Source of the DNA: Candidatus Shapirobacteria bacterium CG10_big_fil_rev_8_21_14_0_10_48_15
GTDB lineage: Bacteria; Patescibacteriota; Microgenomatia; PFEM01
Length of the DNA: 31,501 nucleotides
Direction of reading: 5' to 3'
Assembly (NCBI GenBank): GCA_002793635.1
Contig: PFEM01000036.1
Coordinates: 1 to 31,501, forward strand
The notes beneath the pieces were generated by a model. It was not told where the DNA came from. It ran no database searches and saw only the letters and a program-made list of their open reading frames with translations. Shown one piece after another: positions 1 through 22,337 of this stretch; the stretch's first letter is position 1, and every line of letters starts with the position of its first letter. The position numbers and the translations under genes are program-made.

Positions 1-2010
1 GTCGGTGGCTTGGGATTGGTGTTCTTGCCCCTAACCTTTCATTTTTTTGGTAACTTTTGGGACAAGGGTTACAGTTTAAGCAAAATTATTGCCTTGCTGG
101 TCATTAGTTATTTCGTCTGGTTGCTGGGCAGTTTAAAAATCCTCCCCTTTACCAGCCAAACGATTTGGTTGATCGTCACCCTGGCGACCGGGTTTAATTT
201 CTGGTTATTTCGCCGCCAAACCAAAACCGTCAAAAAGTTGGTTCACACCCACCAAAGAATTTTTATTTTTGAAGAGGCGCTTTTTTTGGTGGCCCTGCTT
301 TTTTGGGCCTGGATACGCGGCTTCCAACCCAATATTCAGGGCCTGGAAAAATTCATGGACTACGGCTTTGTCAACTCCATTTTACGGGCGCGTTGGTTTC
401 CGCCGGCGGACATGTGGCTGGCCGGCAAAAGTATCAATTATTATTACTTCGGCCACCTAGCAACCGCGGTTTTGACTAAGTTATCCGGTCTTGACTCGGC
501 CATTACCTACAATCTGATGATGGCTCTGTTGTTTGCCTTCACCATGACCGCCAGTTTTACTTTTGGCAGTAACCTTTTTGCCGTCTTGAAAAAAAATGAC
601 AAGAAAACAAAAAAGATTGCTTTTGCCGGTTTGGCGACGGCTTTGTTGGTCAGCCTAGGCGGCAATTTGCACCCGCTTTATTGGTGGCTGACCAACCATA
701 ATTTTTCGGCTTACTGGTACCCGGACGCCACCCGGTTTATTGTTGAAAAGTTCGGGGCCGCGGACAACACGATTCATGAATTCCCGCTTTACAGTTTTGT
801 GGTGGCTGACCTGCACGGCCATCTTCTCAACCTGCCTTTCGTCTTACTCTTTTTAAGCCTGGTATTAAGTTTTTTCTTTACTCGGTCGCCCAGGGCGACT
901 CGATTAACTCGATTAACTTGGTCAACTCGATATCTTGGTATCTCGTTGCTCCTCGCCGTTTTCTTTATGACCAACACCTGGGACTTCCCCATTTACTTTT
1001 TGATTTTTGGCCTCGCTACCCTTTATCTCAATTTCACCCGTTATCGCCGGCCAACTCAAGCTTTGGGCAGCAGCGCCCTAACTGGCTTGATCTGTTTGGG
1101 GTTGGCCCTGCTTTTTTCTCTACCCTACCATCTTCATTTTGAAAACATCACCCAAGGAGTGGCCTTGACAGATTTTCACTCGCCTGTCTGGATGCTGCCG
1201 GTTTTGTGGGGTTGGCCACTCATGTTGACTTTGACTTTTATCGGCTTTTCTTTCTGGAAAAAAAACCAATGGCAAAACACTGATAACGTGGTTCTCATTA
1301 TGGTAGGCGTCAGTTGGCTGTTAATCCTGATCCCCGAGTTTATCTATGTCAAAGACATCTATATCCACTCTCACCAGCGGGCCAATACCATGTTTAAGCT
1401 CACTTACCAAGCCTTCGTGATGTTCGGCCTGACCGCCCCCTACATTATCCTTAGAGTCATTTCAAATCTTAAAAACAAACTTATTAAGGCTTTGCTTATC
1501 ACTGCTTGCCTATCGCTTATCGCCTTTATTGCCATTTATCCCCGCTTTGCCATCCGTTCTTATTACGGTCTCAAAAATTACCAAGGCCTCTACGGCCTCA
1601 CTTATTTACAAACCAGCTACCCAGATGACTACCAGGCGATTTTGTGGTTTAGGGAAAATATTAGTGGTCAGCCGGTCATTGTTGAGGCCGTCGGCGAAAG
1701 CTACACTGACTTTGCCCGCGTCAGCGCCAATACCGGTTTACCGACCATTTTGGGCTGGCGGGTCCACGAGTGGTTGTGGCGCGGCTCCTTCGATGAAGCC
1801 GGTAAACGCACCGATATTGTCCAGCAAATTTACGAAGCCGCCGATCCGCAGCAAACGAAGCAATTGCTACGGCAATACCAAGCAAAATATATTTTTATCG
1901 GCGCTTTGGAAAGACAACAATACGTTAACCTTAATGAAGAAAAGTTCCGTCAGTTAGGCGAAGTGGTTTTTGCTTCCGGAGAAACCAAAATTTACCAGCT
2001 GGTTAATTAG
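1..2010 (+). CDS. DUF2298-family multi-pass membrane protein (putative GT-C glycosyltransferase), 5' end probably outside the window
   Basis: Frame is open from base 1. Motifs EKFMDYGF, PPADMWLAG-SINYYYFGH, IHEFPLYSFVVADLHGH, NTWDFP, NTMFKLTYQ and TGLPTILGW match DUF2298 proteins as I recall them; many TM segments. Confidence 0.85.
   Translation, partial: VGGLGLVFLPLTFHFFGNFWDKGYSLSKIIALLVISYFVWLLGSLKILPFTSQTIWLIVTLATGFNFWLFRRQTKTVKKLVHTHQRIFIFEEALFLVALLFWAWIRGFQPNIQGLEKFMDYGFVNSILRARWFPPADMWLAGKSINYYYFGHLATAVLTKLSGLDSAITYNLMMALLFAFTMTASFTFGSNLFAVLKKNDKKTKKIAFAGLATALLVSLGGNLHPLYWWLTNHNFSAYWYPDATRFIVEKFGAADNTIHEFPLYSFVVADLHGHLLNLPFVLLFLSLVLSFFFTRSPRATRLTRLTWSTRYLGISLLLAVFFMTNTWDFPIYFLIFGLATLYLNFTRYRRPTQALGSSALTGLICLGLALLFSLPYHLHFENITQGVALTDFHSPVWMLPVLWGWPLMLTLTFIGFSFWKKNQWQNTDNVVLIMVGVSWLLILIPEFIYVKDIYIHSHQRANTMFKLTYQAFVMFGLTAPYIILRVISNLKNKLIKALLITACLSLIAFIAIYPRFAIRSYYGLKNYQGLYGLTYLQTSYPDDYQAILWFRENISGQPVIVEAVGESYTDFARVSANTGLPTILGWRVHEWLWRGSFDEAGKRTDIVQQIYEAADPQQTKQLLRQYQAKYIFIGALERQQYVNLNEEKFRQLGEVVFASGETKIYQLVN
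880..945 (+). repeat. Composite in-frame repeat: 15-bp palindrome, 9-bp-unit array and 8-bp units
   Basis: ACTCGGTCG CCCAGGGCG ACTCGATTA ACTCGATTA ACTTGGTCA ACTCGATAT, then CTTGGTATCTCG; palindrome GTCGCCC-A-GGGCGAC at 885-899; encodes TRSPRATRLTRLTWSTRYLGIS. Confidence 0.85.
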
Positions 2011-3004
2011 TCAGCCGCTTGACCACCATGCGGTGGATTTCCGACCAGTCGGTGCGGGGCATCAACACCCATTGGAAATCATATTGAGTCGAAGCGGGCG
2101 GGTTAACCAAAAGGTCTTCCAAACCAGCCGTTTTAATATTGGCCGTTTTAAACTGGAGCGCCAATTGGGCCAAACCAAAATACGCTGACGGTGGGACATC
2201 AGTCTTAATACTTTGGTTAAAAACTTCATACAGTAATCGTAGTCGCTTCCCGTCGCGCAATGTTTCCCAAGATAGCAGCTTTTTTCGAATTGCCGTGATA
2301 ATTTGTTGCTGGCGACGGGAACGGGCAAAATCCGTACCCTCTTCTCCTTCAGCAAAACGGCTGCGAACGTATTTTAGGGCGCGTTCACCGTCCATTAATT
2401 GCAACCCTTTTTCAAAGTGAAGATGTTCATAGCGGCACTGATAGTTGCTATCACCACTGCATTCATCATTTTCCTTACCCGGAATCGGGTAGCGGTAGTC
2501 GTCAAACGCCCGTTCGACGTCTACCGGCACGCCGCCAAGCGTGTCGATCACTTGACGAAAACCACCGAAATCAAGCAGCACCGCGTAATGAATCGGCTGG
2601 CCCAAAATTTCCCCCACCACCTTTTTTGACTCTGCCAGACCGCTACCAGGCTGATTTTTCTCTGCATAATGATAGACTGTGTTAAGCTTGGCTCTCATCG
2701 CTGCAATCCAGATATCCCGCGGCAAAGAAAGCAACCATGATTCGCCGCTGGATTGATCAAGCGAAAAGAAAATCAGCGTATCCGTCAAATCTTGGCCACT
2801 ATACGCTTCGCCAGGGACCCCCAGAAGTAAAAAGTTGGTCCGGCCAGCCGTACTGGCGACCGATTGCTTGGCCCCCAAAACCAGCCGCTGCAAGCGGCTA
2901 CCAAGCGCATAAAAAAGCGCTGTCAAACCCACAAAAACCAAAACCACAATCAAAATTTGACTAATTTTTGGGACAAATCCCTCTTTAGAGTATCTTGGCA
3001 TCAT
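2003..3004 (-). CDS. LCP (LytR-CpsA-Psr) family glycopolymer-peptidoglycan transferase
   Basis: N-terminal TM; NFLLLG, LTDTLI, SLPRD, GERALKYVRSR, DFARSRRQQ motifs; SD-like AGGAG upstream on the minus strand (3013-3017). Confidence 0.92.
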   Translation of the reverse strand: MMPRYSKEGFVPKISQILIVVLVFVGLTALFYALGSRLQRLVLGAKQSVASTAGRTNFLLLGVPGEAYSGQDLTDTLIFFSLDQSSGESWLLSLPRDIWIAAMRAKLNTVYHYAEKNQPGSGLAESKKVVGEILGQPIHYAVLLDFGGFRQVIDTLGGVPVDVERAFDDYRYPIPGKENDECSGDSNYQCRYEHLHFEKGLQLMDGERALKYVRSRFAEGEEGTDFARSRRQQQIITAIRKKLLSWETLRDGKRLRLLYEVFNQSIKTDVPPSAYFGLAQLALQFKTANIKTAGLEDLLVNPPASTQYDFQWVLMPRTDWSEIHRMVVKRLTN

Positions 3005-3012
3005 GTTAGAAT
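3004..3012 (+). promoter_or_regulatory. Extended -10 promoter (TGtTAGAAT) 6 nt before the pcrA ATG, overlapping the LCP start codon
   Basis: TG at 3004-3005, TAGAAT at 3007-3012, ATG at 3019, no SD. Confidence 0.6.
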
Positions 3013-3018
3013 GCTCCT

Positions 3019-4869
3019 ATGCTTGGACGCTCCTCTATTTTAGCTCACCTTAACCCCCCTCAACAAGCGGCGGTCACCTATGGCGAAGGACCGTTGCTGA
3101 TTTTGGCTGGTCCAGGATCAGGCAAAACCCGCGCGCTCACTCACCGGGCTGCTTATTTGATCAAAGAAAAACAAGTGCCTCCCGAAAATATTTTGCTACT
3201 GACTTTCACCAACAAAGCCGCTGACGAAATGAAGATTCGTTTGCAAAAATTGCTCGTCCCCTCGGTCAACTCGGTCAACTCGGTCAACTCCGCCTCCCTC
3301 CCGTTTGCCGGGACTTTCCATTCTTTTTGCGCTCGGGTCTTGCGACGCTACGGCCAAGCGATCGGGATTCCCCCCGGCTTTACCATCTACGACACCAGCG
3401 ACCAAAAGGAAGCGATCAAGCAGACCTTAAGGAAGCTTAATTTCTCGGAAAAGAAGTTGGCGCCGACGGCGGTTCTCAAAACGATTTCTCAAGCCAAAAA
3501 CGAAATGATTACCGCTACCGAATATCCTCAATATGCCCGTGGCCCTTGGCAACGGGACGTCGCCGAGATTTATCTGGCCTACGAAAAAATGCTCCGGCAA
3601 TATCAAGCCTTAGATTTCGATGATTTACTGCTAAAAACCGTTCAACTTTTTCGCAGCCACCCGGAAGTTTTAGCCAACTATCAAAACCAGTTCCAATATA
3701 TTCTGATTGATGAATATCAGGATACCAATCAGGCTCAATATCTGTTGACTCGCCAACTGGTCGGCAAGTGGCGCAATTTGTGCGCGGTCGGTGACGCCTC
3801 GCAAGCCATTTATGGCTTTCGTGGGGCCAACTACCGCAATCTTTTAACCCTGCAGCAAGATTTTGTTGATCTTAAGACCATCAACTTGGAGCAAAACTAC
3901 CGCTCTACCCAAACGATTTTGAGCGCCGCCAACGCGATGATCAAAAAAAATGCCAGTCATCCGGTGTTAAACCTGTGGACGCAAAATGGCGCCGGCGACC
4001 CGGTCGCCTTATACGAAGCTCGTTCTGAAATCGATGAAGCCGACTTTATTGTCAATACGGTCGCGACCCAAACTTTGCGCCAGCCGTCGTTTTCCCCGGC
4101 TGATTTTGCCATCCTCTACCGTACCAACGCCCAGTCAAGGACCCTGGAAGAAGCCTTTCTGCACGCCGGGTTGCCTTACCGGCTGGTCGGCGGCACCCGC
4201 TTTTATGACCGCAAAGAGATCAAAGATTGCCTGGCTTATTTAAAATACTGGACTAATCCGCAAGACAAGGTTGCTTTCAAAAGAATTGAACAAATCGGTA
4301 AGCGCCGGGCAGAAAAATTTCTTAAATTTAAGGAAAAACAAGCTCCATCCCTATCAACGCTCAAATTATTGGACAAAATTTTGCAAACAACCGCTTATTT
4401 GGAGCTGTTTGATTCCCAAAGCGAAACCGATCTGGCCAAGCTGGAAAACATCAAAGAGTTGCGCTCGGTTGCCACCCAGCACCCTGACTTAACCAATTTT
4501 TTGGAAAACGTCGCTTTGGTGGAACAAGAAAACGGAGTTGACCAAGTTAATCAAGCTGACCAAGTTAATCAAGGGGTAACGCTGATGACCGCTCATGCCG
4601 CCAAAGGGACCGAATTTCCGATCGTGTTTGTGGTTGGCTTGGAAGAGGGTCTTTTCCCTCATTCCCGCAGTTTGCTGGAAAAAGACAAAATTGAAGAAGA
4701 AAGACGACTGTTTTATGTGGCCATGACGCGGGCCAAAAGCCGACTGTTTCTTTCGTACGCCCGCCGCCGGCTTTACTTTGGCCAACGTACCAGCAACCCT
4801 CTCTCCCGCTTTGTCAACGACATTCCCACTGACTTGCTCGAGTTTATCAACGAAAGTTTGCTAGAATAA
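3019..4869 (+). CDS. pcrA: UvrD/PcrA superfamily 1A DNA helicase (short 2B region, no C-terminal domain)
   Basis: AGPGSGKT (Walker A), TFTNKAA, GTFHSF, IDEYQDTN, VGDASQAIYGFRGA, LEQNYRS, YRTNAQSR, TAHAAKGTEF, EERRLFYVAMTRA. Confidence 0.95.
   Translation: MLGRSSILAHLNPPQQAAVTYGEGPLLILAGPGSGKTRALTHRAAYLIKEKQVPPENILLLTFTNKAADEMKIRLQKLLVPSVNSVNSVNSASLPFAGTFHSFCARVLRRYGQAIGIPPGFTIYDTSDQKEAIKQTLRKLNFSEKKLAPTAVLKTISQAKNEMITATEYPQYARGPWQRDVAEIYLAYEKMLRQYQALDFDDLLLKTVQLFRSHPEVLANYQNQFQYILIDEYQDTNQAQYLLTRQLVGKWRNLCAVGDASQAIYGFRGANYRNLLTLQQDFVDLKTINLEQNYRSTQTILSAANAMIKKNASHPVLNLWTQNGAGDPVALYEARSEIDEADFIVNTVATQTLRQPSFSPADFAILYRTNAQSRTLEEAFLHAGLPYRLVGGTRFYDRKEIKDCLAYLKYWTNPQDKVAFKRIEQIGKRRAEKFLKFKEKQAPSLSTLKLLDKILQTTAYLELFDSQSETDLAKLENIKELRSVATQHPDLTNFLENVALVEQENGVDQVNQADQVNQGVTLMTAHAAKGTEFPIVFVVGLEEGLFPHSRSLLEKDKIEEERRLFYVAMTRAKSRLFLSYARRRLYFGQRTSNPLSRFVNDIPTDLLEFINESLLE
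3258..3292 (+). repeat. 9-bp-unit element, copy in pcrA
   Basis: CCCCTCG GTCAACTCG GTCAACTCG GTCAACTCC G; encodes PSVNSVNSVNSA. Confidence 0.92.
4533..4576 (-). repeat. 9-bp-unit element, inverted copy in pcrA
   Basis: Minus strand reads CCCCTTG ATTAACTTG GTCAGCTTG ATTAACTTG GTCAACTCC G; the plus strand encodes GVDQVNQADQVNQG. Confidence 0.9.
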
Positions 4870-4873
4870 GAGG

Positions 4874-5809
4874 GTGGCTCAACATCCTTTACAGTCTCAA
4901 GAGTGGGCTGAATTTCGGACCAAAACCGGTGTCAAAGTCGTGCGGCTAAAAAATTTTCAGGTTTTTTTTCACTCCATGCCTAAACTGCCTTATACGGTCG
5001 GCTATTTACCCAAATCAGCCTTGCCCACCCAAAAGGAGTTTGACGAGCTTCTCAAGATTGGCCAGCAGCAAAAGGCAATTTTTATTAAAGTCGAGCCTAA
5101 CTTAAATTTTCCGGCCGGGCGGGTAAACCAACAAGTTAGACAATTTTTACTGCAGTCTTGCCGACCGGGCGAAGACCACTTTCACCGTTACACTTTCCAG
5201 CTGGATTTGACCAAACCTGAAGAGGCCCTGTTAGCGGCTATGAAACCCAAAACCCGTTACAATATTCGCTTAGCCGAGCGCCGTGGCGTCAAGGTCATCC
5301 CCGATAAATCAGCCCAAGCGTTTGCCACTTATTTGCAGTTAATGTGGGCCACGACACAGCGCCAGGGTTTTTACAGCCACACCCGACAGTACCACCGCTT
5401 GCTTTGGGAGACTTTTAAAGACACGGATATTTATCAGCTTTTTTTGGCCAAATACAAAAATAAGGTCTTGGCCGCCTACGTTTTTTTCGTCTACGACCAA
5501 GTGCTTTATTATCCTTACGGCGCCTCCAGCCGTGAACACCGCGAAGTGATGGCGCCGCACGCGCTTTTTTGGGAAGCAATCAAGTTTGGCAAACAAAAAA
5601 ATTGCCGGCTTTTTGACATGTGGGGCAGCCTCGGCCCGGAGGCTGACCCCCAGGACCCCTGGTTTGGGTTTCACCGCTTCAAAGCCGGCTTCGGCGGCCA
5701 GCTGCGGGAATCCATCGGCGCTTATGATCTGGTGATCAACCCTTGGCTTTATCGGGTTTACCAAATCGCCAACAAATTGCGCTGGGTGATTTTGAAATTG
5801 AAAAAGTGA
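4874..5809 (+). CDS. FemABX-family peptidoglycan bridge aminoacyltransferase (lipid II)
   Basis: HPLQSQEWAEFR, IFIKVEP, DLTKPEEALLAAMKPKTRYNIRLAERRGV, YYPYGAS, WEAIKFGK, FDMWG, FHRFKAGFGG. GTG start. Confidence 0.9.
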   Translation: MAQHPLQSQEWAEFRTKTGVKVVRLKNFQVFFHSMPKLPYTVGYLPKSALPTQKEFDELLKIGQQQKAIFIKVEPNLNFPAGRVNQQVRQFLLQSCRPGEDHFHRYTFQLDLTKPEEALLAAMKPKTRYNIRLAERRGVKVIPDKSAQAFATYLQLMWATTQRQGFYSHTRQYHRLLWETFKDTDIYQLFLAKYKNKVLAAYVFFVYDQVLYYPYGASSREHREVMAPHALFWEAIKFGKQKNCRLFDMWGSLGPEADPQDPWFGFHRFKAGFGGQLRESIGAYDLVINPWLYRVYQIANKLRWVILKLKK

Positions 5810-6729
5810 CTGATCTTCGCCAAACATCCCAATATGCCCACTATCTTCGGTTGCAAGGCTGGCAAGTAAACAAAATCAATGGCGCTTATATTTTTATTCG
5901 CAAACTATTTGGCATTTCTATTGTTAAAATCCAGCGCGCCCCAATCACCCCTGAGGCGTGCGCAGCATTCCCGAGGGGTGTTGGGATAATCTACCTCGAG
6001 CCCCTAAACAAAAAACAAATTCCTCCCGGCTTTAAACTCAAAAAGACAACATTCTTACCCAGCAAAACTTTGGAAATTAATTTAAAGCAATCAGAAGAAA
6101 AAATTTTGCAACAAATGAAAAAAGACGCCCGCTATGCCATCCGCCAAGCACAAACGTCTGGCATCTCGGTATATCACAATATCGGGATATCGGGATATCG
6201 TCGCGCTTGGCGCCAGTCTACCCCCTGGCGACGCTGGGTACCCAGTCTCAAAAGCCTGCAAAATCTTCATGCTACCTTTGGCAAAAATGCCTGGTTTTTA
6301 GCGGCCGTGGTTCATCACCAAATTATCGCGGGAACAGTCATTCTCATCGCCGCTCGCCGGGCCTACTATTATTATGCTTTTACCGGTCGCCTGGGACGAC
6401 AGCTTTTGGCCCAGTATTTGCTGGTTTGGGAGGCAATCAAGCAAGCCAAAAAAATTGGTTGCCAAGAACTTGATTTTGAAGGGCTTTATGACCAACGCTT
6501 TCCGGACCAGTCTTGGCGCGGTTTTAGCCATTTTAAGCAGTCCTTCGGTGGCCGGGAAATCGAATATCCCGGGTGTTTTGGAAAATTAGTGCGTTCGGAG
6601 CAAACTTTTGATAAATTTTTTCGCCTCACTGCTTTCTTCAAAAACACGGCTTTTTTCTTCAGGCGTTACACTGGCAACCAAATCCTTACCTGCAAAAAAT
6701 TGATCATGGGCTTTTTGATAAAAATCTGA
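5806..6729 (+). CDS. Second FemABX/GNAT-family protein; probable GTG start at 5806; last 48 codons antisense to the next gene
   Basis: GTGA overlap with the upstream stop. DLRQTSQYA, KTLEINLKQSEEKILQQMKKDARYAIRQA, YLLVWEAIKQAKKIGCQELDFEG, HFKQSFGG. Confidence 0.8.
   Translation: MTDLRQTSQYAHYLRLQGWQVNKINGAYIFIRKLFGISIVKIQRAPITPEACAAFPRGVGIIYLEPLNKKQIPPGFKLKKTTFLPSKTLEINLKQSEEKILQQMKKDARYAIRQAQTSGISVYHNIGISGYRRAWRQSTPWRRWVPSLKSLQNLHATFGKNAWFLAAVVHHQIIAGTVILIAARRAYYYYAFTGRLGRQLLAQYLLVWEAIKQAKKIGCQELDFEGLYDQRFPDQSWRGFSHFKQSFGGREIEYPGCFGKLVRSEQTFDKFFRLTAFFKNTAFFFRRYTGNQILTCKKLIMGFLIKI
5946..5980. repeat. GC-rich palindromic (REP-like) segment within the femAB-like gene
   Basis: CACCCCT (5946-5952) pairs with AGGGGTG (5974-5980); encodes ITPEACAAFPRGV. 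Confidence 0.5.
6160..6199 (+). repeat. Degenerate 8-bp tandem repeat within the femAB-like gene
   Basis: GGCATCTC GGTATATC ACAATATC GGGATATC GGGATATC. Confidence 0.75.
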
Positions 6730-6816
6730 TTGACGCCAACGGATAAGCAGTTCTTTGGGGTTGTCGATCCTTAACTTATCCGACTCTTGGGGAGCATTTT
6801 CTTCCGATGCAGACAT
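6586..6816 (-). CDS. 76-aa charged hypothetical protein, probably leaderless
   Basis: ATG lies 5 nt after an extended -10 (TGaTATAAT, 6822-6830) with TTGCAA at 6846-6851; helical, charged composition. Confidence 0.6.
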   Translation of the reverse strand: MSASEENAPQESDKLRIDNPKELLIRWRQSDFYQKAHDQFFAGKDLVASVTPEEKSRVFEESSEAKKFIKSLLRTH

Positions 6817-6821
6817 AAGGC

Positions 6822-6851
6822 ATTATATCAAAAAACAATTTTCGCTTGCAA
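6822..6851 (-). promoter_or_regulatory. Sigma70-type promoter of the 76-aa ORF
   Basis: TTGCAA-N18-TATAAT with an extended TG. Confidence 0.6.
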
Positions 6852-6868
6852 TCTTGCTTTTTTTACCA

Positions 6869-6932
6869 AGAAAAAAGGCAAGACACAAAGCCCAACATCA
6901 GCCATCGCTGATATCAAGACCGGTCTTGCCTT
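6869..6932 (-). terminator. Long hairpin plus U-tract after the lipoprotein gene
   Basis: AAGGCAAGAC/GTCTTGCCTT 10-bp stem (6875-6884/6923-6932), inner ATCAGC/GCTGAT stem, T-run on the minus strand. Confidence 0.6.
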
Positions 6933-6953
6933 AGTGGCGCTCCGAACAACGGG

Positions 6954-7364
6954 TTAAAGGGGAGTCACCGTGGTTGCTGGAGCCGCTGTTGGCGACGGTG
7001 GAAGCGACTGGTTAGGCAATTGCCACCAAGCCAAATGAACCGTAACATCACCGTTAGCCGCCTTTATTACTTCTCCCTCTGCTCGGGCGTTGCTCCTAGC
7101 AAAACCCCTGTTTTTGATCAGCGTAATCTCGGTAGTGAAGGTCACTACAAAGTTCCCGCGATCAAGCAGAAAAGAGTGGGTCACCCCGTCCTGGGTAACC
7201 ACGGCTAATTCCGCACCCAAAGGGATCTCGCCCTCCTGAACCACCTGCAAAAGGAAAAGCCTGGGACACGCCTTCTCAACGATTCGCGTTACCTCGACGA
7301 CTTTTGGCTGGCAACCAGCCAACCAAACGGCGAGCAGCGCCACTGCGAACAACCAACGCTTCAC
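6954..7364 (-). CDS. Predicted lipoprotein, unknown function
   Basis: GTG start with SD GGAGG 8 nt upstream; signal peptide MKRWLFAVALLAVWLAG-C (lipobox LAGC); VVEVTRIVEK; Pro/Thr/Ala-rich C-terminus. Confidence 0.8.
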   Translation of the reverse strand: MKRWLFAVALLAVWLAGCQPKVVEVTRIVEKACPRLFLLQVVQEGEIPLGAELAVVTQDGVTHSFLLDRGNFVVTFTTEITLIKNRGFARSNARAEGEVIKAANGDVTVHLAWWQLPNQSLPPSPTAAPATTVTPL

Positions 7365-7405
7365 TGCAGTCTCCTCCCCGTCAAATTAACGAGCCACTAA
7401 ACCCT

Positions 7406-7433
7406 ATAATATCAAAACTGCTCCAGAAGTCAA
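7406..7433 (-). promoter_or_regulatory. Candidate promoter of the lipoprotein gene
   Basis: TTGACT-N16-TATTAT with TG extension, immediately after the helicase-nuclease stop. Confidence 0.45.
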
Positions 7434-7435
7434 CT

Positions 7436-10312
7436 TTATCGCCACGCTTCGCAGATCAATTTGAAGTCGCAAAAGCGGCACCAAATCCCCGGGTTAGGCT
7501 TAAAGTCGCTGTGATTAATTTGCTCAGCAATTTCAATAATCGCTTGTTTGTCTTTTTCTAATTGAGCGGCCGTCCGTTGCGTCGACTTCTTCTCGCCGGT
7601 TTGCAAAAAGTAAAAACTCAAAATGACGTCCTCCGGCGGCTGGTTGTAAATTCCCTGATCGGTAACGGCTAAGGCGTAGATCGTCATCTGCAGACTGCGG
7701 TCAACTCGCTTTTGCTCCCAGGCCCGACCAGTTTTATAATCAATAATTTCCAATTTGCCACCCTGACGGTCAACCCGATCCAAACGACCCCCCACCTTCA
7801 GATCCGCCGCGACCCTAATGGCAAACCCCTGTTCCAAAGCCAACGGCAAATTTTGCGGGTCATATTCTTGCTGGTAAAATTTCTTCAGCATTTTTGCTCC
7901 CCGATTGCGCGTCTTGCGCTCGTGATCGGCGTTCGTAAGGCCGGCCGTAGACCAATTTTTGGCAAACAACACCAGCAAATCCTGCTCGGTCGGCTGGCTA
8001 CCCTGTTTGGCTTGCTGATAAAAATCCCGCAACGTGTTGTGCATGGTCGTCCCAAAAGTGAGCGTTGCCGACGGCAGAGTCGGAATCCGTTGCCAATAGC
8101 GATAACGGTACTGCAGCGGGCAGGTGGCAAAAACGTCGATCTGGGAAAAAGAAAGAAAATTAACTGCCGGCTGATCACTGACGACTAATGATTGTTTTTC
8201 TTCCTGGGGTTTTTGATAATCGAAAAAAGTTAATTGTTGGCTTTGACCTTGAATTTGCTTCTGGCTAATGATTTTTTCTCCCAAAGTTTCAGCAACAAAA
8301 GGAGAGAGCTTGATTTTGCGCCGGCCCTCACCGTAATAATCAGCGGCGGTTAGCCAAAGCCGGTTTCGGGCACGGGTCAACCCCACATAAAACAACCGCC
8401 GTTCTTCCTGCAAATGATAATCACCTTCCGGCAGAATCTCTTTAATCAGCTCATCAGGAATAGGGATTTGTTCCTGCCGTTCCCTGGTAGGAAAACGACC
8501 ACTAACTAAATTAACCAAAAAAACCACCGGAAATTCCAAACCCTTGGCAGAATGAATGGTCAACAGATTAACTTTATTTTCCGCTACCCAGTCAGTCGTA
8601 CCGGCCAATGGCGATTCGCCTCTTTCCATCGCCAGACTAATCCAGGCCACCGTTGCCTGAACTGACGCGTCTTCATGAGCTGCCTCGTAGGACTTCAGCC
8701 GGTCAAACAGTTTGGCAATGTTTTGCGCCTGCTTTTCCTGGGCCACCGTTTTATAATCTGTCAATTGCTCCAATAAACCCGAATCCTGCAAAAAATAATA
8801 AAGAATCTGACCGGCCGTTTCTTTGACCAGTAAATCCAAATGCCGGTGGACCATCTGCACAAATTTTTTAATTTTTTCTCTAGCTTCCTGATTCAAAAAA
8901 ACTTGGTCCGCTTGTTCACAGGCTTCAAAAAAAGCCATGTTTTGGCGCCGGGCGAAGTTACTGATCGCGGCCAGATCGCGGCCGGAAAGACCAAAAACGC
9001 CCATGGACAGCACCCGATACACTGCTGGCCCGTCCTCAAAATTATCCAGGAGTTTCAGATAAGCGATCAGGTCTTTGACCTCCGGCTGGCGAAACAATTG
9101 GCCCGGCCCTAAAAACTGGTAGGGAATCCCCGCCCGCGACAGCGCCCGGGTAAAAGCCTCAGCATGATTATTGGCCCGAACTAAAAGGGCAATATCCTGA
9201 TACTGATACTTTTTTTTGGTCAAGCCGCTAATTTTTTTGGCCACCGCCTCCGCTTCGTCTTCCAACCGACCAGTCAAAATCAACTTAATCGGCTGGCCAA
9301 CCACCTGACGGGCTGAAACCAATTTTTTATTAATCTTTTCCTTAACTTCCAAACGATCCGGATTATTGTGCTGAATCAGCTGGTAAGCTCGATCCAAAAT
9401 TTCTTGGGTGGAGCGATAGTTTTGCGTCAGGGTGATTAATTTAGCTTTGGGAAAATTACGACGAAACTGGATGACATTGGCAGTAGCTGCTCCTCTCCAA
9501 CGATAAATTGCCTGGTCATCATCCGCCACAACTGTTAAGTTGGCCTGTTTGCCCGCCAGAAGCCGGACCAGCTCATTTTGGGCGATGTTGGTATCTTGAA
9601 ACTCGTCGATCAGCAAGTATTTAAACTTCTGTTGATATTGCCGCAAAATATTAGGTCTGGTGCGAAACAGTTGCAAAACCCGAGTAATCAGATCGCCAAA
9701 GTCCATGACATCCTTTTGCGTTTTTAATTCCTCATAGGTTTGGTAAGCGGTCGCTAATTCCAGATATTTCTTTTGGTTATCAGTTCCTAGTTGTAAGCTA
9801 TTGGCCTTTACCCAGTGAACATATTCGCTGGGCTGGATGTCTTCATCTTTCAGTCGGGAGAAATGCTGCAACAGGCCCTCAACAAATTGGGTCGGATTGC
9901 CAAGTGGCCGGTAATAACCAAGCTTGAATTTAAACAAATGATTGATCAAAAATTGGGTGGTTTCTGCGCCGCCCATCAGCTGGTAATTGGCGTTGAGGCC
10001 AATTTGCAGGGCTTCTTGACGCAAAACCCGATCGCAAAAAGAGTGAAAGGTGCTAATCCACATGTCCGTATAGCCGTAAGGCATCGCCAAATCGACCCGC
10101 TCCTCCATTTCCCCGGCGGCTTTATCCGTAAAAGTGAGTGCCAAAATTTCGGCTGGCTTGAGTTTTTTGCTGACAATCAGGTATTTAATTCTTTCGGTGA
10201 TGACCGTGGTTTTACCGGTACCGGCGCCGGCAATCACCAGTAACGGTCCCTGACCATAACGCACCGCCGCCCGCTGCTGCGGATTGAGCTTTTTTAATTG
10301 GTTTTTATTCAT
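7436..10312 (-). CDS. UvrD-type helicase fused to a C-terminal PD-(D/E)XK nuclease with four Cys (AdnA/AdnB/AddA-like)
   Basis: AGAGTGKT, TFTDKAA, STFHSF, IDEFQDTN, TIHSAKGLEF, EERRLFYVGLTRA; C-terminal FSQIDVFATCPLQY, GRLDRVD, IIDYKTG, CRFCDFKLIC. Confidence 0.92.
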   Translation of the reverse strand: MNKNQLKKLNPQQRAAVRYGQGPLLVIAGAGTGKTTVITERIKYLIVSKKLKPAEILALTFTDKAAGEMEERVDLAMPYGYTDMWISTFHSFCDRVLRQEALQIGLNANYQLMGGAETTQFLINHLFKFKLGYYRPLGNPTQFVEGLLQHFSRLKDEDIQPSEYVHWVKANSLQLGTDNQKKYLELATAYQTYEELKTQKDVMDFGDLITRVLQLFRTRPNILRQYQQKFKYLLIDEFQDTNIAQNELVRLLAGKQANLTVVADDDQAIYRWRGAATANVIQFRRNFPKAKLITLTQNYRSTQEILDRAYQLIQHNNPDRLEVKEKINKKLVSARQVVGQPIKLILTGRLEDEAEAVAKKISGLTKKKYQYQDIALLVRANNHAEAFTRALSRAGIPYQFLGPGQLFRQPEVKDLIAYLKLLDNFEDGPAVYRVLSMGVFGLSGRDLAAISNFARRQNMAFFEACEQADQVFLNQEAREKIKKFVQMVHRHLDLLVKETAGQILYYFLQDSGLLEQLTDYKTVAQEKQAQNIAKLFDRLKSYEAAHEDASVQATVAWISLAMERGESPLAGTTDWVAENKVNLLTIHSAKGLEFPVVFLVNLVSGRFPTRERQEQIPIPDELIKEILPEGDYHLQEERRLFYVGLTRARNRLWLTAADYYGEGRRKIKLSPFVAETLGEKIISQKQIQGQSQQLTFFDYQKPQEEKQSLVVSDQPAVNFLSFSQIDVFATCPLQYRYRYWQRIPTLPSATLTFGTTMHNTLRDFYQQAKQGSQPTEQDLLVLFAKNWSTAGLTNADHERKTRNRGAKMLKKFYQQEYDPQNLPLALEQGFAIRVAADLKVGGRLDRVDRQGGKLEIIDYKTGRAWEQKRVDRSLQMTIYALAVTDQGIYNQPPEDVILSFYFLQTGEKKSTQRTAAQLEKDKQAIIEIAEQINHSDFKPNPGIWCRFCDFKLICEAWR
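8164..8194 (-). repeat. Degenerate 7-bp tandem repeat in the helicase-nuclease linker
   Basis: Plus strand CTGCCGG CTGATCA CTGACGA CTAATGA TTG; encodes QSLVVSDQPA. Confidence 0.6.
9776..9803 (+). repeat. Degenerate 7-bp tandem repeat in the helicase domain
   Basis: GTTATCA GTTCCTA GTTGTAA GCTATTG; the minus strand encodes ANSLQLGTDNQ. Confidence 0.6.
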
Positions 10313-11333: not shown

Positions 11334-11374
11334 CGCGTCTTTAATTCTAACAAAGGCTGGGTTAAAATCAAAGC

Positions 11375-11704
11375 ATGCCGCAACGCCGCAAAAACTTTCT
11401 TCCCACGCTAATTTTAGCCATTTCATTTTGGGGAGTGGGGGGGTGGCTGGTTTGGTCACAACCGCCCAACAGTCATTTTTGGATTGGCTTGTTTTTGCTG
11501 ATGCTTTTTTTCGCCTTGTTTTTAACGGCGGCGCTCATTTTTAACCACTCTGGCCGGGGATTATTGCTGGCTTTATTTACCGTCAGCGCGCTTTTGCTGC
11601 GCCTTTTTCAAATCGGCCACCCGCTTAATTTGGCCATACTGGCGGCGATTTTTATTATTCTGGGCATTGCCTTGGCGAAAACCCCACCAAAAGCAAGCCG
11701 CTAG
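11375..11704 (+). CDS. Small 4-TM membrane protein
   Basis: Four hydrophobic segments with a basic N-terminus; TAAAAT 6 nt before the ATG. Confidence 0.75.
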   Translation: MPQRRKNFLPTLILAISFWGVGGWLVWSQPPNSHFWIGLFLLMLFFALFLTAALIFNHSGRGLLLALFTVSALLLRLFQIGHPLNLAILAAIFIILGIALAKTPPKASR

Positions 11705-14677
11705 AACCAAAAAGCCCAGATATTCCAACCCTTGCGGCCAGAAAAAAATCCAAGGCCGTTGGCCCTCATTGTTCAGCTCCCAACCATTGGCCCAATTATT
11801 AATCAGCACGTGTTTCAGCAATTTAGGCCCTCCGTCTTCCCAACCAAGGGCCAGCCAACCAGAGTCAAAACTTTGATCAAAAAACAAGCGCTTGTTTTTT
11901 TGATCAATGGGCGCTAGCCACTGATAGTCAACAGGAAAAATTTTGACCGCTTTCAGTTGGTTAACCGACGGGACTTGCCCAATTGAATAATTGCTAAGAT
12001 TCAAATCAAAACCTTTTTCGCCTGTTGACTGAGGTGGAATTAAAAAAAGCTGCGTTTTAAAATCAGCCCCCTCGTGTAATTTAATGTCCAAATCACAGCG
12101 TCTTGTCTGATAATTGGTTAGGCAAAAACGAATCGGTAAACCCTGGATATTCTTTGATTCCACTAACAATGCATAACCCTGATTATGTAGCAATTGGGGA
12201 TAGTAAAAGGTATCGCAAAGGTTACCGTTTTGCGAAAAATATTCAATATATTGATTATCATCAGCGCCGGTAATTTTTCTGAAGTACTTTTGCGGGGCAA
12301 TCCCACAGCTGGTATCTTGACGCTGAAGCACCGGCAAATTACCCAAGCTCCCTTCCTGCAAAAGACTTATTGCCTCTTCATTACTGTTTTGTTTATAAAA
12401 GGTCAAGCTGAGTTGGCGAACTTTAAGTTCTGTGTAAGCGTTGGCCACTAAGGAAAATTGCAGCTGATAATTTGCCGCACCACCAACTATTTCAAAAAAT
12501 GGATAATCATATCTCTGCGCTGCACACCGCCCCAAACGATTATCGAATAGGCAAAAGTTAGCATCGCCCTCTTTTAATAAATCAACTTTTAACCAAAGAT
12601 TTGCCTCGTTAAGGGGCAGGGGCAGCTGGAAAAGCGGTAATTTGACACAGGCATTTGCTGCTTGGGCCGAAAGTTTAAACCCCCTACCAGCATCAAGCAA
12701 ATCATAAGCAAAACTTTGGTCTAGCAAAATCGGGCCGCAATTCTCCGGAAAAAGAAAAAACTTCTCAAAATCTACCTTGATGACCTTTTCCGGTCGAGTT
12801 AATTGTAAAGCTGTTTTTGCCGGCAGCTGGCTAACGACCTTGTCGTAATTAGCCCCGACAATTTCCTCCGTAGACTGCAGATTATAAATCTTGTTATTTT
12901 GTAAATTACCTACCTTATAAATACTGATCTTGGGACCAAATTTTTTGGCCAGTTGAAACTCGTTTTGCTGACTCAAAATAACTTTAGTCTCCTCGAAAAG
13001 CAAAACTTTTTGGTCGTGGTTGGGGTCAAAAATATTTTCGTCCAGCAAGATCCAGTTAATATTATATTTTTGCACAAAAGACGAAAGCAAAGACGAATTT
13101 TGAGAATAAAGCGCGTAACTTAGCTCTCGATAGGCTTCCTGGTTATATTGGGACCAACGGTCAAACTCTCGATCCAAAAGAGGTTGCTTAAGACCAAACC
13201 ACAAAAAACCAGCGCCCTGGTAGCCCCAACCATAATAATTCCAACCCCACAAATCAGGCATCGGCAACTTCAAAATGCGACCGGCGGTTTGCTGATCAAA
13301 CCAGGCAAACATTTCAAAATACTCATTGGGAATTTTAATTCTCATTTGCGGACTAACTAAATAACCAGCAAAAGCCGGCCGCATGTAAAAAATCAAACTG
13401 CCGGTAATTATCGCCGCTACCAACAACGAAATTATTTTCCTTTTGGCAAATAGAACTCTAACTGCCTGACCGAAAAAAATTGCCTCTACAAAAATCAACA
13501 AAATTGAAAATTTAGTAAAAGGAAAGCGCAAAATTTCTCTTGCAAGAGACCAACGGCCGATAAGCCAACTGTAGATTGGTGACAGCAGGGGGTTCAGAAT
13601 CATCATGAAGAAAAACAAAAAAATAAAGACCGGCAGCCAAGAGACTAACACTACCTCTTTTTTAAACAGCGCCGTTGCCAAACCGACCGCCACTAACAAA
13701 AAAAATAGGTATCCCAAAAAAGACACCTCGGGATTATTAAGGTGAACTTGCCATGCACGTAAAAGTGGTCCAAACCCAACTTCTGGTTGGTAAACTTGCC
13801 AATTAAACAGGAAGCTTTTAAATAACGCTACCTCTGCCAAGCCGCTGAATTCCTGTCCCTGAGCAATCGCCTCATCGGTAAAAAGCTGGTGAATTTTAGA
13901 AGCTTCCACTTCCCCACTGTGTCGGCAAACATAGTAAAGATTCGGCCCGAGCCAAAAAAAATTAGTTACCAAAATGGCAAAAAACAGCAAAAAAATTCTT
14001 TTCCGCAAAAAAATCTTTTGAGGGGAAAAAATCAAAAAGCCAGCCAGATACAAAACAACGACTACTAAATAAACATAAAAAAGGGTGGCGGTGTGCGCCA
14101 TTGGTGCTGCCAAAAAGCTAACCAACCCGAAAAGCAGTAGACAATTTTTCTTCCCTGTTTGGATGAATTGAGTCATTAGTAAAAATAACCAGCCTAGGGC
14201 GGCGTACTGGGTGGCAAACATTTCCAAAGGGACAACAAAATGTTGTACTGTCCCCAAATTAAGGAGGTAAAAAAGTGCTCCCAAAAAGGCTGGTATGTTT
14301 TGCCGCCAAGCAACTTCTCTTTCAAAAACAATTTTTTTAAGAAAGGAATAAACTCCCAGAGGGCCCAAAAGCAGACAAACAAAAAAATAAAAATAGCGCA
14401 AAAAGGAGACGGGCAAAAGTAAAGAAGCCAGAAATAAAAAAATCAGCCGCGGCAATTCCGCAGCATGGGCTTGAGAAGCCGTTGCTCCCAAACCTTGATG
14501 CTCTTGCCAAGCACCGCTGATCGCCCGCCCAAAACCTAAAGAAAAGCTAAACTCCGGGTGAAGTGTGTCCCAACCGGTAAGCCACGTCCCGGGGGAATAA
14601 TTCCGCACGCAAATAATAATGGCTATTAGGGCAATTAAAGCCGGCCAAAAACTTGCCTTTTTGAAAATTTTCCTCAT
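11573..14677 (-). CDS. Large GT-C-type membrane protein (AftD/YfhO-like) with a big extracellular domain
   Basis: GWDTLHP early loop, about 12 TMs, WGYQGAGFLWF, LLDREFDRW, C-terminal HVLINNWANGW plus TM. The family assignment is a recalled resemblance. Confidence 0.65.
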   Translation of the reverse strand: MRKIFKKASFWPALIALIAIIICVRNYSPGTWLTGWDTLHPEFSFSLGFGRAISGAWQEHQGLGATASQAHAAELPRLIFLFLASLLLPVSFLRYFYFFVCLLLGPLGVYSFLKKIVFEREVAWRQNIPAFLGALFYLLNLGTVQHFVVPLEMFATQYAALGWLFLLMTQFIQTGKKNCLLLFGLVSFLAAPMAHTATLFYVYLVVVVLYLAGFLIFSPQKIFLRKRIFLLFFAILVTNFFWLGPNLYYVCRHSGEVEASKIHQLFTDEAIAQGQEFSGLAEVALFKSFLFNWQVYQPEVGFGPLLRAWQVHLNNPEVSFLGYLFFLLVAVGLATALFKKEVVLVSWLPVFIFLFFFMMILNPLLSPIYSWLIGRWSLAREILRFPFTKFSILLIFVEAIFFGQAVRVLFAKRKIISLLVAAIITGSLIFYMRPAFAGYLVSPQMRIKIPNEYFEMFAWFDQQTAGRILKLPMPDLWGWNYYGWGYQGAGFLWFGLKQPLLDREFDRWSQYNQEAYRELSYALYSQNSSLLSSFVQKYNINWILLDENIFDPNHDQKVLLFEETKVILSQQNEFQLAKKFGPKISIYKVGNLQNNKIYNLQSTEEIVGANYDKVVSQLPAKTALQLTRPEKVIKVDFEKFFLFPENCGPILLDQSFAYDLLDAGRGFKLSAQAANACVKLPLFQLPLPLNEANLWLKVDLLKEGDANFCLFDNRLGRCAAQRYDYPFFEIVGGAANYQLQFSLVANAYTELKVRQLSLTFYKQNSNEEAISLLQEGSLGNLPVLQRQDTSCGIAPQKYFRKITGADDNQYIEYFSQNGNLCDTFYYPQLLHNQGYALLVESKNIQGLPIRFCLTNYQTRRCDLDIKLHEGADFKTQLFLIPPQSTGEKGFDLNLSNYSIGQVPSVNQLKAVKIFPVDYQWLAPIDQKNKRLFFDQSFDSGWLALGWEDGGPKLLKHVLINNWANGWELNNEGQRPWIFFWPQGLEYLGFLVLAACFWWGFRQGNAQNNKNRRQYGQIKRVADLKKAQQKRADGK

Positions 14678-14736
14678 AAAGTTGTTTCATTTTTTGATTG
14701 TCCCAAAACACAAATTTCTTTTTGTTTTAAGACAAT

Positions 14737-14750
14737 CAGGCATCATCAAA
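14737..14750. repeat. Left arm of a 14-bp inverted repeat
   Basis: CAGGCATCATCAAA is the exact reverse complement of 15964-15977. Confidence 0.7.
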
Positions 14751-14771
14751 GCAACTCCATTTTCTCTGGCG

Positions 14772-14800
14772 AGAAAAGAAGACAGCCAAGGGCTGTTTTT
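14772..14800. terminator. Short, possibly bidirectional intrinsic terminator
   Basis: ACAGCC-AAG-GGCTGT with T-rich tracts on both strands. Confidence 0.5.
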
Positions 14801-14811
14801 CCTGATTGCTT

Positions 14812-14877
14812 GGTCGAGAGACCGCCGTAATGTTTTCTGTTCTTCACTGAACAGCACATCCTCGGCGGTCCCCGACC
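14812..14877 (-). other. 66-nt nested hairpin 3' of the 324-aa gene
   Basis: GGUCGGGGACCGCCG/CGGCGGUCUCUCGACC outer stem, AUGU/ACAU middle and CUGUUC/GAACAG inner stems; a G-U wobble favours the minus strand. Confidence 0.65.
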
Positions 14878-16802: not shown

Positions 16803-16810
16803 CCCGCTTA

Positions 16811-17637: not shown

Positions 17638-17641
17638 TTAA

Positions 17642-18016: not shown

Positions 18017-18034
18017 TCTGTTAGAATTAGCTTC

Positions 18035-19447: not shown

Positions 19448-19475
19448 TTATTAGCCATCAGTTATAATTAAACCC

Positions 19476-20993: not shown

Positions 20994-21008
20994 TCTTTAA
21001 TCAAGGCA

Positions 21009-22337
21009 ATGAATCAATTTACTGCCAGCTTGTGGGGAGACGAAGGTTGGGCCGTCAATTTAGCGATTAAACCCATCTCGCAAATCATCAAAATCGTCAG
21101 CCGGGATACTTCCCCGCCCTTTTATTATCTTTGGGAGCACCTCTGGCTGAAAATTTTTGGCACTTCGGAGGTGGCCATTCGCAGCTTGTCTTTTTTCTTT
21201 TTTGTCCTCACTGTTTTGGTCGTTTTTTTGATCGGCCGTCATTTATGGGACAAAAAAACTGGTTGGCTGGCGGCTTTGCTGACCTTGACCAATCCCTTTT
21301 TGTTTAGTTACGCCTTCGAAGGCCGCATGTATGCCTTGCTCGTTTTGACCAGTACTTTGTCCGTTTACTTCTTCCTCAAAAAGCAGCGCTGGGGGTTTAT
21401 TTTGGCCACGACCGCGGCGCTCTACACCCACCACTTCGCCATTTTTATCGTCATCTGGGAAGGCCTGTGGGCAATTTTTGCCCTCCTTCGCGAGCGCCAC
21501 GCTACGAAGGGCGCTGCTAAACGTCGGCTGCTGCCTTTTCTACTGATCGGCTTGCTCTACCTACCTTGGCTTTCCCCTCTTTATTATCAAACCTCGCTGG
21601 TGAGCAGTGGCTTTTGGCTGGGCAAACCAGAGTTCAAAGACCTTTTTAAAACTGCCAGTAAATTTTTGGTTGGCAGTGACCAACCGAATCTTTATCAACA
21701 AATTGCCCTGGGGGCTTTACTGCTGACCCTAGCCGTGCGCCGCTGGCTCTCCAACGCGGCGGTTAACTCGATTAACTCGGTTAACTCGATTAACTCCGCT
21801 TTCCTGTTTGGCTGGTTTTGGACGCCGTTGTTGCTGAGCCTGACCATTTCTCAATTTTTTCAGTCAATTTTTTATGATCGTTACCTACTGCTGGCAATCC
21901 CGGCAGCAACCTTGCTGATCGCCTCGCAGCGACGCCGTTTTTCCTGGCTGCTGATTTTGGTGGCCGTCGGCTGTTTGTCGATCATTAACTATGATTACTT
22001 TTGGCACCCGACCAAGCGGCCTTTTCGCCAATTGGCCGAATTTATCAAAGCCGAGGCCGCTGGTTTACCCTTGATTAACTACAACGCCGCTTCACACCAC
22101 CTGTGGGAAACAAAATATTATGGCCTTGAGGCCCCCATCTACAGTCCCCAGCCGTTGCCCTTTTATACCGGCACGGCGCTGATGAATGAAGGCGACATTA
22201 TTGCCACTTTGCCCGACCAATCACCCATCGGGGTGATCACCAGTGCCTCAGTTGCAGAAGTCCGACTCCCCGGCTATCATTTAGATCAATACCATCAAAT
22301 TGATTCCCTGAAACTTTTATGGATGGTCAAAAACTAA
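21009..22337 (+). CDS. GT-C (GT39/PMT/ArnT-like) glycosyltransferase
   Basis: SLWGDE, DTSPPFYY, EVAIRSLS, EGRMY, YDRY motifs; multi-TM. Confidence 0.85.
   Translation: MNQFTASLWGDEGWAVNLAIKPISQIIKIVSRDTSPPFYYLWEHLWLKIFGTSEVAIRSLSFFFFVLTVLVVFLIGRHLWDKKTGWLAALLTLTNPFLFSYAFEGRMYALLVLTSTLSVYFFLKKQRWGFILATTAALYTHHFAIFIVIWEGLWAIFALLRERHATKGAAKRRLLPFLLIGLLYLPWLSPLYYQTSLVSSGFWLGKPEFKDLFKTASKFLVGSDQPNLYQQIALGALLLTLAVRRWLSNAAVNSINSVNSINSAFLFGWFWTPLLLSLTISQFFQSIFYDRYLLLAIPAATLLIASQRRRFSWLLILVAVGCLSIINYDYFWHPTKRPFRQLAEFIKAEAAGLPLINYNAASHHLWETKYYGLEAPIYSPQPLPFYTGTALMNEGDIIATLPDQSPIGVITSASVAEVRLPGYHLDQYHQIDSLKLLWMVKN
21480..21512. repeat. 33-bp in-frame palindromic (REP-like) insertion
   Basis: GCCCTCCTTCG-CG-AGCG-CCA-CGCT-A-CGAAGGGC; begins on a codon boundary, 11 codons (ALLRERHATKG). 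Confidence 0.65.
21762..21797 (+). repeat. 9-bp-unit element, copy in the GT-C gene
   Basis: GTTAACTCG ATTAACTCG GTTAACTCG ATTAACTCC, then GC; encodes VNSINSVNSINS. Confidence 0.92.

Follow-up and report, generated by a model that had tools for sequence, protein, structure and literature searches.

Tandem arrays of a nine-base DNA unit behave as one family of dispersed repeats inside conserved genes of a small Patescibacteria genome

The window considered in this report is a stretch of 31,501 nucleotides (contig PFEM01000036.1), taken from a bacterium whose gene content is typical for Patescibacteria of the Microgenomates type, i.e., for members of the candidate phyla radiation (CPR). The element in question is a short DNA unit, RTYAACTYG, repeated in tandem at four places within the genes of this window and at further sites of the genome to which it belongs (572,848 bp in 40 contigs, 86% complete; hereafter the source genome, labeled G000). 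The arrays of the window and the genes that host them are the following:

894-945, plus strand: array 1, within a gene for a DUF2298 membrane protein (1-2010)
3019-4869, plus strand: pcrA, a gene for a PcrA/UvrD-type helicase (Pfam UvrD-helicase and UvrD_C), host to arrays 2 and 3, which are mutually inverted
3256-3292, plus strand: array 2, within pcrA
4533-4576, minus strand: array 3, in reverse orientation within pcrA, with four units at 4534-4569
21762-21798, plus strand: array 4, within a gene for a PMT_2 glycosyltransferase (21009-22337)

Each array has its own make-up and its own peptide. Array 1 consists of one degenerate unit, three 9-mers (903-929) and two 8-mers (930-945), and its translation in unit frame +1 is RATRLTRLTWSTRYLGIS, a series of the type RLT/RLT/WST. 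Array 2 begins with the degenerate unit GTCCCCTCG, continues with two copies of GTCAACTCG and ends with GTCAACTCC, thereby containing three GTCAAC units, and is translated as VPSVNSVNSVNS, in which VNS occurs three times over 3256-3291. Array 3 is flanked by CCCCTTG and CCG and reads on the gene strand as GVDQVNQADQVNQG, with a DQV/NQA series over 4525-4569, while array 4 is made of four units in which GTTAAC and ATTAAC alternate, has the terminus AACTCCG, and gives the peptide VNSINSVNSINS, a VNS/INS series. An earlier interpretation, made from the letters alone and referred to here as the sequence-only reading, had located four arrays at these positions and had named the same three peptide series (VNS/INS, RLT/WST and DQV/NQA), and both statements were borne out, the latter by translation. 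It had also held that the two pcrA arrays share their ends, and indeed they have CCCCTYG in common at one end and GTCAACTCCG at the other, and measure 35 and 44 nt, i.e., they differ by 9 nt. Tandem Repeats Finder (TRF) assigns the window arrays scores of 47-74, and two consecutive units, with at most one mismatch allowed, match the window 10 times versus 0 in 100 dinucleotide shuffles. When folded as single-stranded DNA, array 4 forms a hairpin (z = -4) and is the only one of the four to beat its shuffles; arrays 1-3 do not.

Under looser definitions of the unit, about 14 clear tandem arrays, from 18 to 54 bp in length, are found on 11 contigs of the source genome, along with a few marginal two-unit cases. 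There are 12 exact matches to two consecutive units versus 0 under a third-order Markov model, and the genome-wide excess over a codon-shuffled null that the sequence-only reading had anticipated is present as well, this null giving at most two such matches, both within stretches left unshuffled. Single units amount to 78 versus about 45-47 expected, and the surplus corresponds to the units within arrays; the reading of RTYAACTYG as a DNA uptake sequence (DUS/USS) was rejected, as single units are not enriched outside the arrays.

Thirteen of the 14 arrays are intragenic, in hosts with firm Pfam domains: PcrA (twice), DUF2298, two PMT-type glycosyltransferases, a class I tRNA synthetase, prolyl-tRNA synthetase (ProRS), ribosomal protein L24, a P-type ATPase, an M16 peptidase, a class V aminotransferase, a radical SAM protein and a formyltransferase. 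Their positions bear no relation to gene starts, and the sole intergenic array (contig C9, 4510-4554) is located between a pair of genes, directly adjoining a stop codon. No long master array was seen at the contig ends or beside the N gaps of the source genome, and the four isolated RTYAACTCCG words found in it appear random, with no template copy among them. Separately, a poly-C stretch of 45 bases or more adjoins an assembly gap on contig C37, at about 9140-9188.

The reading frames of the arrays indicate at which level the repeat arises. Two of the six frames of the unit hold stop codons, namely YAA (TAA if Y is T) on the unit strand and TRA on the opposite strand, and the genic arrays use all of the four stop-free frames (F0, F1, R0 and R1), with the respective peptide series V/I-N-S/L, L-T-R/W, Q/R-V-N/D and K/E-L-T/I, and never F2 or R2, in which TAA or TGA would be read. 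Because exactly the four stop-free frames are used, the arrays are a DNA-level repeat that lands regardless of frame and is then filtered by selection, and not a protein motif; the DNA-level process claimed by the sequence-only reading is thus upheld by four frames in both orientations. The arrays are antisense to the host gene in 10 of the 13 genic cases of the source genome, and when those of a second Microgenomates genome, G016, are added, the RTYAACTYG strand is antisense in 15 of 19 (binomial P = 0.02), an excess that could stem from a strand-biased generating process or from a better tolerance of the antisense peptides.

The unit of nine bases put forward by the sequence-only reading stands, but its strict periodicity does not. 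Units of eight bases, GTATCTYG, recur within five arrays and shift the frame inside them, as on contigs C23, C30 and C40, and a sixth array (contig C30) holds the 8-mer variant GTATCGCG. GTATCTYG has 16 copies in the source genome, a number near chance, and five of these 16 sit inside arrays at separate loci, beside 9-mers.

Two side observations concern the unit itself. By eye, it shows some resemblance to the Tn5 target consensus and the site of integration host factor (IHF), each being off at one position. Moreover, a perfect eight-base array, (ATATCGGG) x2.8, is present in the window at 6179-6200, within the second FemAB-like gene (5743-6729), and directly upstream of it stands CATCTCGGTAT, which is like the 8-mer variant of the 9-mer arrays.

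What the arrays do to their host proteins was assessed against relatives that lack them. The nearest species-level relative (G001), which belongs to the same family, is array-free and was fetched almost entirely, has proteins 56-70% identical to those of the source genome, and was aligned to every array-bearing protein, with 12 sites having a covering alignment. The net changes at these sites are +9, +11, -2, +10, +10, +18, +1, 0, -1, +6, +2 and +1 residues, and every site has well-conserved flanks; net insertions of 6-18 residues account for about half of the arrays, and the remainder overwrite variable loops with the length unchanged. Within the window, array 1 adds 9 residues relative to this relative, array 2 is an insertion of 8-11 residues in the alignments with its orthologues, and array 3 does not increase the net length with respect to them. 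In the predicted PcrA model, which is poor overall (mean pLDDT 62.8) and was used for the N-terminal array only, array 2 forms a low-confidence coil between a helix and a strand, with confident flanks.

The glycosyltransferase offers the closest comparison. Its nearest relative in a collection of 5.8 billion proteins, P0121 (80% identity), reads RRWSSN-KAVFLLGW where the window protein reads RRWLSNAAVNSINSVNSINSAFLFGW, and array 4 is a clean insertion of 12 residues (36 nt, four units) with respect to P0121 and to all the other members of the family; the DNA of P0121 at the empty site holds nothing unit-like beyond GTT. Likewise, the nearest relative of ProRS (77% identity) is devoid of the array. 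These alignments support the view that the arrays create or overwrite loops in conserved proteins, array 4 being the cleanest case, and with this 12-residue insertion the new loops predicted by the sequence-only reading have a concrete example.

The arrays also vary between strains. More than 20 metagenome runs from groundwater and aquifers contain the window sequence. PcrA occurs as variants of 613 and 616 aa that are 99% identical, the 613-aa forms lacking exactly one unit of array 3 and having a V>I change in array 2. A strain contig (L019) that corresponds to positions 1-14869 of the window is 99.84% identical to it, with 15 substitutions and one indel, the latter being a 9-bp deletion at 4548-4556, i.e., one whole unit within array 3; the length difference between the two strains over 14.9 kb is therefore due solely to an array. 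Both pcrA arrays measure 35 nt in this contig, where 31 of the 35 bases are identical, including the CCCCTYG and CCG flanks. Two of the substitutions fall within arrays, at 3274 (V>I, array 2) and at 4544, and a third, at 3293, is two bases beside an array. As the arrays make up 0.9% of the 14.9 kb compared, the Poisson probability is 0.008 for the two in-array substitutions and 0.001 for three when flanks of 9 nt are included.

Contigs from four runs that cover positions 600-5000 of the window add further transitions at R/Y positions (4556, 4564) and frequently terminate at arrays; no indels were found in the arrays among these, which are contigs and not reads, so that rare variants would be lost. 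Because the strain substitutions are enriched in the arrays, and because the sole indel is one unit, the arrays are the fastest-changing part of their host genes, and their unit number does change, as the sequence-only reading had expected.

The ends of the arrays, and the variants common to several of them, bear on how new sites arise. The terminus CTCCG is found in 6 of the 14 arrays of the source genome. Over 25 arrays from five genomes, the 5' flank retains CTYG (C in 19, T in 18, Y in 24 and G in 21 of the 25), the AA of a full unit is not kept, and the 3' flank contains a weak unit remnant only. The array edges look like decaying or partial units, not like the termini of an element, and no terminal inverted repeats appear in the flank logos of the 25 arrays, nor any clear target duplication. 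Accordingly, the claim of a polar element with common ends survives in part: CTCCG recurs and CTYG precedes most arrays, but the ends are not uniform. An element derived from an insertion sequence (IS), or a miniature inverted-repeat transposable element (MITE), was rejected, given the lack of inverted ends, the merely partial CTYG on the 5' side and the weak remnant on the 3' side.

With regard to their distribution, the two-unit pattern is found in two genomes only, the source genome and G016, whether the 23 genomes of the order or the 401 genomes sampled from the class are considered, and a reversed control pattern gives 0-1 matches per genome. G016, a Microgenomates metagenome-assembled genome (MAG) of another family, is syntenic with the source genome at 55-70% protein identity and carries six arrays, two of them at contig ends, with the same units and frames; its sites differ from those of the source genome, and include another position in the orthologous M16 peptidase.

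When one genome from each of 185,579 species was scanned for three consecutive units, 86 stretches were obtained, the majority of them lone, homogeneous arrays in many phyla. A few genomes have numerous sites. The Verrucomicrobia MAG CALLYA01 (G401) has more than 40 sites of ATTAACTCG arrays within composite arrays, in which ATTCCCTCG, ATTACCTCG, ATTAAATCG and the hexamers ATTTCG and ATCCCG also occur, in all stop-free frames and many at contig ends (examples are L061 6363-6416, L076 4166-4255 and L037 3307-3333). The Falkowbacteria MAG SI037S2_bin7 (G402; L177-L182) has six dispersed heterogeneous arrays with flanking 8-mers RTTAACYG, and the 1.3-Mb gammaproteobacterial MAG SRP178699_co1_170 (G403; L183-L187) has five, the arrays of both lying mostly in short open reading frames (ORFs) or between genes. 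Viral contigs yielded four single matches, three of them in giant-virus MAGs, and no phage vector. Homogeneous arrays of one and the same 9-mer, which occur singly in many bacteria, are taken as a background of 9-base microsatellites.

Taken as a whole, the arrays behave as one family of dispersed short tandem repeats (RTYAACTYG, with its derived 8-base form GTATCTYG), and as selfish or neutral DNA, not as a feature of proteins. The explanation that we favor, with a probability of roughly 55%, is that new arrays originate as copies of existing ones, are altered by slippage and substitution, and are retained by selection for stop-free frames in tolerant loops. In this scheme, new sites would be seeded not from a local seed but from an existing array, via template switch or short-patch conversion at CTY microhomology; the number and the sequence of the units would then change through replication slippage and relaxed constraint, and selection would remove the copies that break the frame, bring in a stop codon or land outside a tolerant loop. 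Such removal would explain why a 9-base unit persists within the genes of a genome that is 89% coding, and why its 7-base repeats accumulate between them.

We infer the copying step between sites because the derived 8-mer, the CTCCG end and the inverted likeness of the two pcrA arrays are common across sites. The same applies to units that are proper to one lineage, such as RTTAACYG in the Falkowbacteria MAG, and ATTCCCTCG, ATTACCTCG and ATTTCG in the Verrucomicrobia MAG: variants common to several sites are accounted for more readily if they were copied inside a genome than if each site had grown on its own.

Several facts weigh against this explanation. No donor-recipient event was caught, and the copying mechanism is one that we infer and did not observe. 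Purely local slippage arrays also show edges that decay into partial units, and unit number varies in only one of the at least five arrays compared between strains. The databases searched leave a gap from 99% down to about 80% identity, in which no relatives were found (for pcrA, PMT_2 and ProRS the identity drops from 99% to 71-80%), so that no DNA-level empty site is available. Lastly, homogeneous arrays of the same 9-mers (GTCAACTCG, ATCAACTCG and ATTAACTCG) occur singly in many unrelated bacterial phyla, and with such singletons in view the unit may simply be slippage-prone.

A bolder proposal, which we regard as unlikely, is that an undescribed, sequence-specific copy-and-insert process operates in several phyla (Patescibacteria, Gammaproteobacteria and Verrucomicrobia), being polar, anchored at CTCCG and variable in unit number, and inserts one and the same 9-base unit into essential genes.

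Somewhat more doubtful still is a non-autonomous mobile mini-element with a defined polar end, moved in trans by true transposition, e.g., by Y1 transposases of the HUH type that resemble the RAYT proteins (REP-associated tyrosine transposases, where REP stands for repetitive extragenic palindrome). The patchy spread across phyla (two genomes among 401 in the class, along with the Falkowbacteria, gammaproteobacterial and Verrucomicrobia MAGs) and the recurring CTCCG end speak for it, and Y1_Tnp genes, coding for proteins of about 200-240 aa, are present in all five multi-array genomes (one-sided Fisher P = 0.046 versus the array-free genomes of the order). Two such genes were found in the source genome, outside the window:

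C2 8731-9447, plus strand: Y1_Tnp gene (IS200/RAYT-like)
C28 15093-15683, minus strand: Y1_Tnp gene (IS200/RAYT-like)

Each is bracketed by its own inverted pair of hairpins of 15-17 nt, which differ between the two genes, in a RAYT-like layout, but these hairpins are unrelated to the 9-base unit, and three of the five array strands that were folded gave no hairpin. Furthermore, Y1_Tnp occurs in 10 of 21 array-free genomes of the order (in 12 of all 23, the source genome included), and the closest homologues of the source-genome Y1 protein reside in array-free genomes (G008 with 60% identity, G017 and G021), ahead of G016. The specific RAYT/TnpA link suggested by the sequence-only reading was dropped on these three grounds, i.e., the unrelated hairpins, the frequency of the gene in array-free relatives, and nearest homologues that are not shared by the two array-bearing genomes. 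The arrays, in addition, vary in length and have neither inverted ends nor a clear target duplication. Among the small array-bearing genomes, which are 82-86% complete, so that the absence of a gene is not proven, no reverse transcriptase (RT) and no TnpB zinc-ribbon domain (PF07282) were detected, nor were IS256 (PF00872, Transposase_mut) or IS4/5 (PF01609, DDE_Tnp_1) transposases in the four of them (G000, G016, G402 and G403).

Less probable again, to our judgment, is that slippage acted independently and in place at each site, the sites converging on a unit that is slippage-prone or favored by the polymerase. It would account for the polymorphism in unit number, for the partial units beside the arrays and for the singleton arrays of GTCAACTCG, ATCAACTCG and ATTAACTCG, and long simple-sequence repeats (LSSRs) with units of 5-11 nt are ascribed to slippage (Mrazek et al. 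2007, as summarized in PMC4679880). Yet one unit recurs at about 14 sites, when a chance seed of 13 nt is expected about 0.5 times per genome; no seed stands at the vacant PMT_2 position in the closest relative; several sites have the derived 8-mer and the CTCCG end in common; and no two-unit match at all occurs in 399 of the 401 genomes sampled from the class.

We find it quite improbable that the arrays were produced by reiterative templated synthesis at DNA breaks, by a telomerase- or RT-like enzyme, or that they are footprints left by a transposase with a 9-bp target duplication. Several DDE transposases duplicate a target of 9 bp, a length equal to that of the unit; the 3' end is constant while unit number varies towards the 5' side; and about half of the arrays replace sequence, as break repair with resection would. 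On the other side, no master or template copy exists at contig ends, at gaps or elsewhere, and RVT_1, Transposase_mut and DDE_Tnp_1 were not found in G000, G016, G402 and G403, within the completeness given above. The linked RT gene that the sequence-only reading had envisaged was likewise not found in G000, G016 and G401; RVT_1 (PF00078) is also missing from the array-free G001 and G009, in a search that was positive in 3 of 14 control genomes. Repeats made by a retroelement (diversity-generating retroelement, retron or telomerase-like) were set aside for the same reason, PF00078 not being found in these 82-86% complete genomes.

Finally, a protein-level repeat under selection and an assembly artefact, to which the in-frame position of the arrays and nothing else lends support, are refuted by the frame usage, with four peptide series from one DNA unit and an intergenic array on contig C9, and by the recurrence of the same arrays across independent assemblies and in the contigs from four different runs.

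Copying between sites, followed by slippage and selection, can now be set beside known systems. Dispersed same-unit repeats have been known since 1990, first as short tandemly repeated repetitive sequences (STRRs), then as LSSRs and TAACTGA repeats, and no explanation is known for their spread to many sites and phyla. The STRRs, heptamers of heterocystous cyanobacteria attributed to Mazel et al. in 1990, reportedly consist of one unit in tandem at many dispersed and chiefly intergenic sites. Their likeness to the arrays lies in one short unit in tandem at many unlinked sites, with a mechanism unexplained in both, and the unit variant TTGGTCAAC includes STRR2 (TTGGTCA); however, STRRs are 7 nt long, chiefly intergenic and cyanobacterial, whereas the present units are 9 nt, with 8-nt variants, and 13 of 14 arrays are intragenic. 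Rickettsia palindromic elements (RPEs), reported by Ogata et al. in 2000, are said to be palindromic and of fixed length, 100-150 bp. Both RPEs and arrays are selfish DNA placed in frame within essential genes, adding surface segments to the proteins, but the arrays span 18-54 bp, vary in unit number and are generally not palindromic, array 4 alone folding better than shuffles. The REP/REPIN-RAYT system likewise comprises short repeats at dispersed sites, and the source genome does have RAYT-like genes flanked by hairpins; REPs, however, are extragenic hairpins matched to their RAYT, and the 9-mer arrays are intragenic and mostly not hairpins. Membership in this system was rejected, as the Y1 hairpins are unrelated to the unit and the presence of Y1 does not track the arrays.

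As summarized in PMC4679880, Mrazek, Guo and Shah (2007) found repeats with units of 5-11 nt to be sporadic across prokaryotes, with heptamers dominant and with units in multiples of three being those located in coding regions, and proposed slippage as the cause of their changes in length. On the strength of that summary, the arrays resemble LSSRs in having a tandem unit of 5-11 nt beyond chance, a sporadic distribution, a multiple-of-three unit in genes and signs of slippage, and they are indeed both longer than chance and subject to copy-number change by one unit. The 9-mer family conforms to the rule on multiples of three, and belongs to the class of repeats that can survive within the genes of a gene-dense genome. 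The difference is that LSSRs, as summarized there, are a statistical class, whereas the arrays are one unit family at about 14 sites, mostly in essential genes, that recurs in other phyla.

The TAACTGA direct repeats of Beggiatoaceae, Cyanobacteria and Bacteroidetes were suspected to spread horizontally, by a mechanism that was not evident (MacGregor 2015, PMC4679880). They share with the arrays one short unit, arrays of 2-6 copies at many sites, a patchy occurrence across phyla and limiting stop frames, and the two units have the core TAACT-G in common; they differ in being heptamers, mostly intergenic just upstream of starts, with a proposed regulatory role (PMC4679880), whereas 13 of the 14 arrays of 9-mers are intragenic. 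The source genome itself has three (TAACTGA)3 arrays (C25 17155-17176, C25 18850-18871 and C14 950-974), and both of those on C25, 21-22 nt long, are inside ORFs of about 480 aa. TRF lists 62 period-7 arrays in this genome, and about half of the 33 that score at least 36 are outside long ORFs, where ORFs occupy about 89% of the genome. As for the tandem repeats of Borgs, they too have edges of decaying or partial units, but each Borg locus has its own unit, whereas here one unit serves at all sites (PMC9879509).

On this basis, we read the arrays as a 9-base, mainly intragenic variant of the LSSR/STRR/TAACTGA type of repeat, i.e., as a known kind of sequence with an unexplained mechanism. The sequence-only reading had thought them possibly undescribed. 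This does not hold for dispersed short tandem repeats of one unit, which are published as LSSR, STRR and TAACTGA (PMC4679880), and it may hold for the 9-base, mainly intragenic form, which was not found in print.

The interest of the source genome lies in its being a compact test case for the spread of such repeats, with 0.57 Mb, about 14 sites and strain variants in more than 20 groundwater metagenomes, and with conserved host genes that let the alignment of orthologues reveal insertion versus overwriting. In this reduced genome, the repeats remodel loops of the core machinery, such as those of PcrA, L24, the tRNA synthetases and the P-type ATPase. If the copy-and-insert process considered above were true, mobile DNA would gain a new, ultra-small class, and proteins a general source of new loops.

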